Positions 29,201 through 32,200 of a DNA stretch of 64,000 bases are shown here, in pieces. This DNA comes from Escherichia coli O127:H6 str. E2348/69 (GTDB lineage: Bacteria > Pseudomonadota > Gammaproteobacteria > Enterobacterales > Enterobacteriaceae): NCBI RefSeq assembly GCF_000026545.1, contig NC_011601.1; one strand, written 5' to 3'. Each line of letters starts with the position of its first letter. The first letter of the stretch is position 1. The position numbers are program-made.

Positions 29201-32200
29201 AAAGCACGGCTCGGGATCTGACGACACAGATCCTCGCCTGGCCACAAGAAGGCAAATCTGCCCGTGCTGTCAGTGGCCTGAACATCCTTACCCTGATGAA
29301 TAATGATATGGCGCTGATACAGCTGCACCATATATCCCAACGGGCGAAATCCCGCTCCTTACGTGATAACGCGGCGGAATTTCTTCAGGTGGTCGCAGAA
29401 AATCGCGGGCTAAGCCAGGAAGAGTTAGCGGACAGATTAGTCCCAACACTGGGTCTTGATGATCCGCAGGCGTTGATTTTTGATTTTGGTCCACGGCAAT
29501 TTACCGTTCGCTTCGATGAAAACCTCAACCCGGTTATCTTTGATCAGCAAAACGTTCGCCAGAAAAGCGTTCCCCGGTTGCGCGCCGATGACGATCAACT
29601 GAAAGCCCCCGAGGCACTGGCCCGACTAAAAGGGCTAAAAAAAGATGCGACTCAGGTGAGCAAAAACCTGCTCCCGCGTCTTGAAACTGCCCTGCGCACC
29701 ACCCGACGCTGGTCGCTGGCAGATTTTCATTCTCTGTTTGTTAATCATCCCTTTACCCGCCTGGTTACCCAGCGATTAATATGGGGGGTTTATCCGGCAA
29801 ATGAACCGCGTCGTTTACTCAACGCCTTTCGTGTGGCCGCAGAGGGGGAATTCTGCAATGCACAAGATGAGCCCATTGACCTGCCTGCGGATGCTCTGAT
29901 TGGCATTGCCCACCCGTTAGAAATGGCAGCAGAAATGCGCAGTGAATTTGCACAGCTTTTTGCCGATTACGAAATTATGCCGCCTTTTCGCCAGTTGGCG
30001 CGGCGCACGGTGCTGCTCACACCTGACGAGTCAGCCAGTAACAGCCTGACTCGCTGGGAAGGTAAATCCGCTACCGTTGGGCAACTTATGGGAATGCGAT
30101 ACAAAGGCTGGGAGTCAGGCTATGAGGACGCATTTGTCTATGACTTAGGTGCGTACCGGCTGGTCCTTAAGTTTTCACCCGGCTTTAACCACTACAGTGT
30201 TGATAGCAAAGCGCTAATGAGCTTCCGTTCTCTTCGGGTTTACCGTGACAATAAATCTGTCACTTTTGCCGAACTTGATGTGTTTGATTTGAGTGAAGCG
30301 TTAAGCGCACCCGACGTTATTTTCCATTAAAACACAGCGGGCAGTGATGCAACTGCCCGTTATCGACACGACTTACCTCCGGGAAAAGCGATGATCGTGC
30401 AAAAAGAGCTGGTTGCTATTTACGATTATGAGATCCCTGTACCTGAAGATCCGTTTTCCTTCAGACTTGAGATCCATAAATGCTCTGAATTATTTACAGG
30501 TTCCGTCTATCGACTGGAGCGATTCCGGCTACATCCAACATTTCATCAACGTGATCGAGAAGATGCCGACCACTAATAAATGGTGCGTTGATTTATATAA
30601 GAGATGAGTTTATTGATGAGCAGAAATTACGAGGTGAATCACATGAAACAGTAATAGCAATTTTTAATTATGAACTACAGAATATATTCAACCAAGAAAT
30701 AAAATAATATACTCTAGATAATTCAAGTCGCAGGAAGGCGATAAGCGAGTGAATCCCCAGGAGCTTACTAAAGTAAGTGACAGGGGTGAACGAACGCAGT
30801 CGCAGCACATGCAACTTGAAGTATGACAAGTAAAGCTTTATTAAAGGGGGAAACGGTATTCCCCCTTAAATGCGTTTCAATTTGCCCGTTACTTCAACAA
30901 ATCAATCAACCGTAACAGAGCCACTAATAACTCCAGTACGGCAATGAGCACGGTTAACTTTTGTGTCAGCGTGTCCATTCGCTCTCCTTATTAAGGAGCG
31001 CAACACCAGCATCTTACCCTTACACTGCCTGTCGATACTGGTTTACGTATGTTGAGTCGCCATGTTGCACTCCGGATCAGAGCACTACCTGCGGCACCAC
31101 CCGTCCGGTAGCCAGGACTTGAAATTGGTTCGATCCGGCGCAACTTCCCAACAGTCAGGATTATAAATCTCATTATCTTAATTGCAACGGGGTCCGTAGG
31201 TGGTTATAATTCGTTCGTTGGGGCGCCATGTTGCATAATCAGTAACTTAACGTCAAAGTTGTAAATAAAAGAACCTGCCTCACCAGCAGGTTTTTTTATT
31301 TTTTGCGATCTGCTTTCCAGATATTTTCCGCTCAAACAACTAATGCGCCAAACATTTATTGCGCGTAAAATATCGTTTATTTCATTAATACATTTCAGGG
31401 ATGAATATATGTCACCGCAGAATAATCACCTGCAGCGTCCGCCTGCTGCTGTGTTATACGCCGTTGAACTGGCAAAATTAAAACAAAATGATAACGCTCC
31501 TTGCCCGCCTGGTTGGCAGTTAAGTTTGCCTGCGGCCCGTGCTTTTATCCTTGGCGACGAAGCGCAAAATATTCGCCGTAAAGTGGTGATTAGTCCCTCT
31601 GCTGTCGAACGCATGTTAGTCACTCTTGCCACCGGGCGCGGTTTGATGTTGGTGGGGGAACCGGGTACCGCAAAATCTCTCCTGTCTGAATTACTGGCAA
31701 CCGCTATTAGCGGCGATGCCGGGTTAACCATCCAGGGCGGCGCATCTACCACTGAAGATCAAATCAAGTACGGCTGGAACTACGCTCTGCTTATCAATCA
31801 TGGTCCGTCAACGGAAGCGCTGGTTCCTGCCCCGCTTTACCAGGGAATGCGCGACGGCAAAATCGTCCGTTTTGAAGAGATAACGCGCACACCGCTGGAA
31901 GTGCAAGACTGTCTGTTAGGTATGCTTTCTGACAGGGTGATGACGGTGCCGGAACTCACTGGTGAAGCCAGTCAACTCTATGCACGGGAAGGCTTTAATA
32001 TTATTGCCACTGCCAATACGCGCGATCGCGGCGTCAATGAAATGAGTGCCGCGCTAAAGCGTCGCTTCGATTTTGAAACTGTCTTTCCGATTATGGATTT
32101 CGCCCAGGAGCTGGAGCTTGTCGCCAGTGCTTCGGCGCGTTTGCTGGCCCATAGCGGCATTCCGCATAAAGTGCCTGACGCGGTACTGGAGTTACTGGTC

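Follow-up and report, generated by a model that had tools for sequence, protein, structure and literature searches.

The region 30840..31304 was assigned, with little doubt, to the zor-orz type I toxin-antitoxin family of Escherichia coli, as a single-copy module in which the small RNA (sRNA) recognition sequence belongs to a third specificity class, apart from the O and P classes. Coordinates refer to the window, i.e., the whole stretch of 64,000 nucleotides of E2348/69 that was analyzed; scanning it gave one copy of the module. The zor-orz system itself is already published and the E2348/69 locus is no new system. It was found in 2010 (PMC2887945) and dissected in 2014 and 2017 (PMC3919570, PMC5397157), and a survey published in 2024 covered over 2,000 E. 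coli genomes (PMC11264685). It is already represented by a family in Rfam and by an entry in UniProt. In E2348/69 and the other annotated records examined, neither the toxin gene nor the sRNA gene was annotated by RefSeq/PGAP, and reading the raw sequence recovered a real gene pair that is absent from annotation. The 29-aa peptide had no family match in NCBIfam, and the toxin gene was left unannotated because NCBIfam has no curated model for it. No report combining orzO with EPEC was found in the literature.

The module lies between yehI/yehK and yehL in the annotation, in the gap named by the preliminary description, and this is the published site of z3289/z3290 (PMC2887945). The toxin side is composed of the following features.

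30889..30978, minus strand: zor toxin coding sequence (CDS), 29 aa plus stop, from the ORF listing
30840..30871, minus strand: hairpin 3' of zor, probable terminator, from an inverted repeat and the fold, with a weak U-tract

The 29-codon ORF had been proposed at this place, with the remark that its product looks like ZorO, and this was right. The peptide, MDTLTQKLTVLIAVLELLVALLRLIDLLK, is an exact match to ZORO_ECO57 (the identical peptide is named "Small toxic protein ZorO, ZORO_ECO57" in UniRef), and the CDS shows 100% DNA identity to zorO of O157:H7 Sakai. It is a hydrophobic 29-aa peptide of the ZorO/Z3289 family. The ALLRL motif, which is needed for ZorO toxicity (PMC6669753), is intact at residues 20-24, R23 included. 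Overexpression of the identical peptide with an O-allele leader arrests growth, and the rescue by the O-allele sRNA is RNase III-dependent and Hfq-independent (PMC3919570). In the literature (PMC3919570, PMC5397157), the EDL933 O allele is the only one for which toxicity and its rescue, dependence on RNase III but not on Hfq, processing and the function of the EAP region were shown, and the E2348/69 allele would, by analogy, act in the same way. For E2348/69, sequence identity, sRNA family, geometry, pairing strength, in silico allele specificity and sRNA-target co-variation were computed.

Downstream of zor, a G/C-rich hairpin of 9 bp (arms 30840-30852 and 30859-30871) is followed by the interrupted U-tract UUUAAUAAAGCUUU. 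It had been described as the toxin's own terminator. The hairpin is real, but as a terminator it is weak, i.e., the U-tract is poor, the folding z-score is only -1.7, and the terminator scan made no call. A transcript from 31152 to this hairpin would be approximately 310 nt, and zor transcripts were reported at approximately 310 and 280 nt (PMC3919570).

The antitoxin gene was found on the opposite strand.

31217..31304, plus strand: orz antitoxin sRNA, approximately 81-88 nt, from the RF02083 match and the fold, with a deduced start
31263..31301, plus strand: orz intrinsic terminator, from the inverted repeat, the fold and the Rfam consensus structure

The Rfam OrzO-P model, RF02083, matched at 31224..31297 with 91.5 bits against a gathering score of 60 (E = 6.5e-15), and the match was full length (model positions 1-76 of 76). 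The suggestion of an sRNA-sized plus-strand gene related to the OrzO family was thus upheld, and published Orz sRNAs are approximately 85 nt (PMC2887945). The recognition sequence is the 5' 19 nt, GUUGGGGCGCCAUGUUGCA. The hairpin and T-tract terminator seen earlier was also recovered, with arms 31263-31278 and 31286-31301 that are 94% complementary and a T-run after them. For the 88-nt unit the predicted fold has -26 kcal/mol (z = -4.1), a stability that none of 200 shuffles attained. Matches of STnc370, ohsC and the Thr/Trp leader at orz were rejected as sub-threshold and driven by the terminator hairpin. Another candidate, V_AS5 RNA at 30707..30830, reached 28.4 bits where the gathering score is 96, and a dispersed repeat, not an RNA gene, accounts for the match.

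Opposite-strand promoters were found in the gap by the promoter scan, which agrees with the divergent layout claimed before.

31160..31165, minus strand: -10 TATAAT of the zor promoter
31182..31187, both strands: palindromic -35 TTGCAA, common to both divergent promoters
31205..31210, plus strand: -10 TATAAT of the orz promoter

The near-consensus plus-strand promoter of the preliminary description, TTGCAA-17-TATAAT, was located at 31182..31210 and agrees with the consensus at 10 of 12 positions. The zor promoter, TTGCAA-16-TATAAT at 31187..31160 on the minus strand, uses the same -35 hexamer. Both -35 elements of zor and orz are TTGCAA in the published comparison and are conserved equally (PMC11264685, Table 3). 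From these elements and the hairpins, we infer the transcript starts and ends of the E2348/69 module.

The zor leader contains the elements below.

30979..31152, minus strand: zor 5' UTR, 174 nt, with its start deduced from the -10 hexamer and by homology with EDL933, where the start was mapped
30984..30989, minus strand: ribosome binding site (RBS) AAGGAG, mRNA +164..+169, 5 nt from the ATG
30981..31001, minus strand: RBS-occluding hairpin, from an inverted repeat, with CUCCUU (+155..160) paired to the RBS
31051..31080, minus strand: EAP region, +73..+102, putative ribosome standby site, as defined in PMC5397157 and PMC11264685
31068..31073, minus strand: GGAGTG conserved motif in the EAP region, +80..85
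31051..31069, minus strand: Orz target site, mRNA +84..+102, sequence UGCAACAUGGCGACUCAAC

The start at 31152 was placed 7 nt past the -10 hexamer. The resulting leader of 174 nt has the published length of the zorO 5' UTR (PMC5397157), where approximately 175 nt had been predicted, and it holds the repeat copy 31051..31069. The Shine-Dalgarno sequence AAGGAG, reported earlier at 5 nt from the ATG, lies at the published RBS position, +164..169 (PMC5397157). In the fold prediction the RBS is occluded, with a mean unpaired probability of 0.07 (full-length RNA) and 0.09 (delta-28 form), and occlusion in both forms was published (PMC5397157). With the start so deduced, the EAP region at +73..102 also opens in silico after loss of the first 28 nt. 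The predicted opening of the Orz target is modest, from 0.23 to 0.36, and this final value is lower than that of the Sakai O allele (0.54). Two further ORFs, of 53 aa (plus strand) and 60 aa (minus strand), overlap the leader and lie within its conserved, structured sequence.

The Orz target at +84..102 is 72-90 nt upstream of the AUG, in agreement with published values. As the preliminary description stated, 31051..31069 and 31217..31235 form a direct repeat with 17/19 identical positions (20/24 when extended). The pairing of approximately 18 nt with 12 contiguous, which was deduced from this repeat, was reproduced as a duplex of 17 Watson-Crick pairs, one G-U and one internal G.A mismatch, in runs of 6 and 12, with -32.9 kcal/mol. 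This is comparable to the cognate duplexes of the O (-31.3 kcal/mol) and P (-34.0 kcal/mol) alleles. Among shuffles of the UTR, only 3/20,000 had 18/19 pairs anywhere. By the experimentally derived rule (PMC3919570, PMC11264685), repression needs either 15 or more continuous pairs or, with one internal mismatch, 17 or more. The E2348/69 duplex is at the edge of this threshold, having exactly 17 Watson-Crick pairs, or 18 counting the G-U, and the threshold itself was derived from the O allele alone.

The reading of ORF and repeat as chance intergenic features or a dead remnant can be given next to no credence. The missing RefSeq annotation, the missing NCBIfam model and the weak toxin terminator would fit it, but the peptide is the experimentally toxic ZorO, the RF02083 match is highly significant, and the promoters, RBS and pairing are intact. 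The low count of shuffles that pair as well also speaks against it, as does the presence of the toxin CDS in 3,394 of 5,426 complete genomes.

Allele specificity was compared at the V1 triplet, which is GAA in OrzO and ACG in OrzP (PMC3919570). The E2348/69 orz carries GCC. Of the earlier ZorO-OrzO-like label, the toxin and the architecture stand, by the exact ZORO_ECO57 match and RF02083, whereas orzO in the strict sense, with V1 GAA and a matching target, does not. With the O partner, the predicted duplexes have -23.4 and -25.5 kcal/mol and contain 3-4 internal mismatches. The sRNA is not orzP either, in which V1 ACG is joined to a body of 82-83 nt; the E2348/69 body is 80-81 nt and shows 78% identity. 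The recognition sequence is a third specificity class whose target has changed in step, i.e., in the three classes sRNA and target co-vary at duplex positions 6, 9, 10 and 11. All cross-class sRNA-target pairs, at -20.1 to -27.5 kcal/mol, fail the rule of 15 continuous pairs or 17 with one mismatch, and the third class is predicted to be without cross-reaction to the O and P alleles.

Exactly three zor-orz locus types were described by Shore et al. 2024, and the zorQ/orzQ type was defined by a BLASTn bit score >650 to their zorQ/orzQ query, with ZorQ (A20S) as a common protein variant (PMC11264685). By elimination and frequency, the third class is probably this type. The type-naming A20S variant is, however, absent from the E2348/69 peptide, and a search by megablast for the A20S codon change in an otherwise identical CDS gave no perfect match and no such locus. 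The third class was found in approximately 1,100 of 5,426 genomes and the O class in 1,265, i.e., at about equal frequency. The divergent partners are cognate in nearly all units with both visible, with the exceptions of loci L015 and L021. The E2348/69 allele adjoins an O-type unit in one genome (L026), and this co-residence is expected for an independent specificity class.

Within the third class, the E2348/69 sRNA is a minority sub-variant. Its 5' end, GUUGGGGCGCC, differs at three positions from the commoner form, GUUGAGAUGCC, and the target is identical. It is improbable, at well below the confidence given to the module, that the antitoxin-target pairing is partly decayed, so that repression is weak and control comes mainly from the self-inhibitory leader. 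Besides the three substitutions, the duplex is weaker than that of the commoner form (-34.4 kcal/mol), one mismatch plus one G-U is the edge of the published rule, and the form is rarer (240 against 792 complete genomes). The energy gap is small, however, and the 6+12 geometry is the same as in the functional-looking P allele. The allele is also kept in those 240 genomes, which represent several strain backgrounds (among them the type strain ATCC 11775 and a goat isolate with two copies), and 99.8% of zor-orz loci meet the pairing rule (Shore et al. 2024, PMC11264685).

For the zor-orz module as assigned, the following mechanism is proposed. The minus strand would give an mRNA of approximately 310 nt with a 174-nt leader, encoding ZorO, which as a 29-residue inner-membrane peptide would depolarize the membrane and stop growth when over-made. 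The leader would keep translation low by holding the RBS in a hairpin, and the EAP/standby region (+73..102) would stay closed by the 5' end of the mRNA itself until approximately 28 nt are removed. From the plus strand, a divergent sRNA of approximately 85 nt would be made, its promoter having the -35 in common with the toxin promoter. Its single-stranded 5' 19 nt would pair in trans with leader +84..102, which would block ribosome standby loading and trigger RNase III-dependent decay. The recognition sequence for this pairing would be that of the third class, apart from the O157:H7 O and P alleles.

Compared with zorO-orzO of O157:H7 EDL933/Sakai (Fozo 2010, PMC2887945; Wen 2014, PMC3919570; Wen 2017, PMC5397157), the toxin is identical both in protein and in CDS nucleotides, and the two modules agree in the 174-nt UTR, the RBS position, the RBS hairpin and the EAP motif, as well as in divergent layout and chromosomal site. 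The sRNA body of 80-81 nt is also like orzO, and its indels against the Rfam model are those of orzO. The two differ in V1 (GCC against GAA), in four duplex positions altered on both sides, and in identity, which is only 90.9% in the UTR and 86.2% in the sRNA. Unlike the tandem pair of O157:H7, E2348/69 has a single copy, and its promoter spacer resembles the P copy and not the O copy.

With zorP-orzP of O157:H7, the module has in common the architecture and the 6+12 duplex with its mismatch at position 7. Like zorP-orzP and the K-12 OrzPmg, it adjoins yehL; the downstream flank is shared with them and the promoter spacer is nearly the same. ZorP differs by T3S, and orzP by its V1 and by the longer, only 78% identical body noted above. 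The K-12 locus, unlike that of E2348/69, is without a toxin. The preliminary description had supposed that K-12 lacks the locus. The loss of the toxin is true, as the toxin and all but approximately 28 nt of the UTR are gone, but the locus as a whole is not lost: both promoters are kept with an intact orzP, which matches OrzO-P at 99.9 bits. This orphan was published as OrzPmg (PMC11264685).

The K-12 orphan OrzP was suggested to regulate other mRNAs in trans, and for the E2348/69 orz such regulation, besides or instead of that of zor, is rather unlikely. Approximately 30% of E. coli genomes have a conserved, expressed orz without the toxin (PMC11264685), for which toxin control alone hardly accounts. 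Nevertheless, no other targets are known, the orphans are almost all of P type (PMC11264685) and not of the E2348/69 allele, and in E2348/69 the sRNA has its cognate zor target, which has co-varied with it. The reading would also be compatible with toxin control.

Among other systems, tisB-istR1, shoB-ohsC and dinQ-agrB also have a divergent trans sRNA that pairs far upstream of the RBS, and a long leader activated by processing with a standby-site mechanism (PMC5397157). Their toxin and sRNA sequences are unrelated to zor-orz and they lie at other chromosomal sites. For ohsC there was a weak, sub-threshold Rfam likeness to orz, 31.6 bits against a gathering score of 50. tisB is under SOS control, and we know of no SOS control of zor.

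The O, P, 3a and 3b alleles, i.e., three target classes in which 3a and 3b are two sRNA variants with one common target, make a compact natural sRNA-target set that is predicted to be orthogonal and could serve to test short trans-pairing rules. The E2348/69 sRNA may even be a recognition variant whose three substitutions drifted while the target stayed fixed, possibly a snapshot toward a new specificity, although this is a speculative reading with a low chance of being right. If it were true, this sRNA might repress its own toxin measurably less, and affinity to the P-type target may be emerging, the -27.5 kcal/mol of that duplex being the strongest predicted cross-pair. The four alleles would then form a graded series for the evolution of orthogonal sRNA-target pairs.

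The 701 queried bases of the window showed 100% identity to E. coli O127:H6 strain E2348/69. In the gap between yehK and yehL, where the RefSeq annotation of the window gives no feature, a divergent pair of small genes was found, i.e., the toxin gene zor and the antitoxin sRNA gene orz.

Elements of the yehK-yehL gap and its borders
30391..30707, yehK, frameshifted pseudogene bordering the zor-orz gap
Arms 30840-30852 and 30859-30871, minus strand, hairpin 3' of the zor ORF
30889..30978, minus strand, zor ORF of 29 codons (ORF listing)
5 nt 5' of the zor ATG, minus strand, Shine-Dalgarno sequence AAGGAG
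31051..31069 and 31217..31235, direct repeat, 17/19 identical (20/24 when extended)
31187..31160, minus strand, zor promoter TTGCAA-16-TATAAT (promoter scan)
31182..31210, plus strand, orz promoter TTGCAA-17-TATAAT (promoter scan)
31182..31187, palindromic -35 element TTGCAA serving both divergent promoters
31263..31301, plus strand, orz terminator, strong hairpin and T-run
31409, start of yehL, the other border

The ORF, AAGGAG, plus-strand promoter, hairpin with T-run and direct repeat of the preliminary description were all located in the sequence, and the minus-strand zor promoter, which it had merely implied, was recovered by the promoter scan. The hairpin that it proposed as the zor terminator is genuine, but the U-tract after it is interrupted and it is statistically unremarkable. 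The yehK remnant is split into two ORFs (61 and 39 aa), and the gene is likewise frameshifted in AVS0153 and AF10.

The noted resemblance to ZorO proved right: the UniRef entry "Small toxic protein ZorO, ZORO_ECO57" matches the peptide MDTLTQKLTVLIAVLELLVALLRLIDLLK exactly, and at the DNA level the CDS shows 100% identity to the O copy, the one nearer yehK, in O157:H7 Sakai. The plus-strand unit, described as an OrzO-like sRNA, gave a full-length hit to the Rfam model OrzO-P (RF02083; 91.5 bits, E = 6.5e-15; gathering score 60), and no second hit to this model occurs in the 64-kb window. The unit is therefore zor-orz, a system already known, and its remaining interest would lie in an annotation gap and a minority recognition allele. 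NCBIfam has no model for the zor peptide, and PGAP left zor and orz unannotated, with the gap shown empty, in 10/10 E. coli RefSeq records examined (L001-L003, L025-L031).

Over its 5'-terminal 19 nt, the sRNA pairs with the zor leader by 17 Watson-Crick pairs and one G-U, with one G.A mismatch, in runs of 6 and 12. Eighteen of 19 pairs anywhere in the leader were reached by only 3/20,000 leader shuffles. The toxin mRNA that is recognised is decided by the three-base V1 segment of the sRNA, i.e., GAA in OrzO and ACG in OrzP (Wen et al., PMC3919570), and both were confirmed in Sakai and another two-copy strain. The V1 of the window sRNA is GCC, and the window target bears the matching change. 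Alleles were compared in annotated genomes, three other Escherichia species and 18 metagenome contigs. Three target classes differed at duplex positions 6, 9, 10 and 11, where sRNA and target co-vary at each position, and divergent partners were cognate in nearly all units with both partners visible.

Predicted duplex energies
O sRNA with O target, -31.3 kcal/mol
P sRNA with P target, -34.0 kcal/mol
Window sRNA with window target, -32.9 kcal/mol
All pairs with sRNAs or targets of other classes, -20.1 to -27.5 kcal/mol

All between-class pairs failed the published repression rule, i.e., 15 continuous pairs, or 17 with one internal mismatch. Because of the GCC V1 with its matching target, this co-variation and the failing cross-pairs, the window unit is assigned on sequence grounds to a third specificity class. 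The assignment as zorO-orzO-like thus holds exactly for the toxin, but the antitoxin is not OrzO in the strict sense, because its V1 is GCC and not GAA. The class-3 target is constant, GUUGAGUCGCC (sRNA sense), and two sRNA forms face it.

sRNA forms
3a, GUUGAGAUGCC, at least 99% identity in 792/5,426 complete genomes
3b (window form), GUUGGGGCGCC, 240 genomes, among them that of the type strain ATCC 11775
O, for comparison, 1,106 genomes

In a goat isolate (L026), form 3b stands in tandem with an O-type unit, which fits the expectation for an independent class.

In the survey of Shore et al. the loci fall into exactly three types (O, P and Q), with a "quite variable" pairing region (PMC11264685). 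Elimination of O and P makes Q the probable type of the window unit, although ZorQ was named for A20S, which the window toxin does not carry. The unit is a mosaic of O-like and P-like parts. Its CDS is that of the O copy, and its sRNA body is closer to O (86% identity, indels in common) than to P (78%); the parts that resemble P are the promoter spacer and the downstream flank. Two metagenome contigs showed swapped partners: in L021 (1..500) a zor with P-type target is divergent from a class-3 orz, and in L015 (1..700) a zor with class-3 target is divergent from orzP, with a class-3 orz just upstream. If real, coverage of each toxin only by the sRNA of the neighbouring unit would show trans action in nature; these arrangements could also be chimeric assemblies of tandem repeats.

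Of 5,426 complete E. coli genomes, 3,394 carry a zor CDS. Among about 100,000 species-representative genomes, the exact 31-nt string of the RBS hairpin occurred in only 3, 3/3 Escherichia. The claim that K-12 lacks this locus was correct for the toxin ORF, but in K-12 C600 both promoters are intact and the yehK-yehL gap (L002, 2987..3292) retains an sRNA gene with exactly the OrzP sequence (99.9 bits). The toxin ORF and the leader except its first ~28 nt are deleted there, with the junction corresponding to ~30727 and ~31122 of the window. This orphan was published as OrzPmg and is expressed, and the "orz-only" kind comprises about 30% of E. coli genomes (PMC11264685).

The proposed mechanism was worked out experimentally for the EDL933 O allele, and by analogy the window allele would act likewise. 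ZorO inserts into the inner membrane, depolarises it and depletes ATP, for which the ALLRL segment is needed (PMC6669753, PMC9860968); this segment is intact in the window toxin. In the O allele the full-length leader inhibits translation because the RBS lies in a stem and the EAP ("exposed after processing")/standby region is closed, and loss of 28 nt opens the EAP region (PMC5397157). OrzO pairs there, with a translation block and RNase III-dependent, Hfq-independent decay (PMC3919570, PMC5397157).

The published leader has 174 nt, with the RBS at +164..169, the EAP region at +73..102 and the OrzO site at the 3' end of that region (PMC5397157). With the zor start set at 31152, 7 nt past the -10 hexamer, the window leader is also 174 nt; the conserved motif GGAGTG spans +80..85, the sRNA site +84..102 and the RBS +164..169. 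The putative starts and ends of both transcripts in E2348/69 were placed by their match to these published landmarks. In predicted folds, the RBS is paired in full-length and truncated mRNA (unpaired probability 0.07 and 0.09), and the 5' 22 nt of the full-length mRNA pair with +73..97. On truncation, accessibility of the sRNA site rose from 0.23 to 0.36 in the window and from 0.27 to 0.54 in Sakai zorO, a smaller gain for the window allele. The modelled folding agrees in outline with the published leader mechanism. The zor mRNA begins (31124..31152, GUUGGGAAGUUGCGCC...) with a sequence similar to the start of the sRNA (31217..31235, GUUGGGGCGCC...). This 5' segment is predicted to pair with part of the same sRNA-targeted EAP segment (+73..97), and until its removal the leader would thus carry its own antitoxin mimic in cis.

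The inferred zor and orz starts lie 65 bp apart (31152 and 31217), with promoters back to back. One polymerase may exclude a second from the opposite promoter, in which case transcription of toxin and antitoxin could compete at the shared -35 element; no discussion of such competition was found in the zor-orz papers examined.

Among toxin variants, R23Q occurred in two P-type copies (L013, L027), one of which is the single zor of a human blood isolate. The ALLRL segment includes R23, and R23L was reported as non-toxic (PMC9860968). T9I and Q6R were further variants (compared loci including L011 and L005), and the L011 toxin has lost its stop codon (...LLKQ).

Between yehK and the zor hairpin lies a 127-bp dispersed repeat (30712..30838), present in 5,425/5,426 E. 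coli genomes (median, 9 sites per genome); O157-type loci have only its right-hand third. Its core, GTGAATCCCCAGGAGCTTAC...AAGTAAGTGACAGGGGTGAACG, resembles an ERIC/IRU element. A weak Rfam match to the V_AS5 RNA was caused by this repeat and was rejected. Three other RNAs of the window scored above the Rfam gathering score.

Other Rfam matches in the window
10192..10288, minus strand, TPP riboswitch
51672..51752, minus strand, Peptidase-S11 RNA motif
63409..63486, minus strand, naRNA4, REP-derived nucleoid-associated RNA
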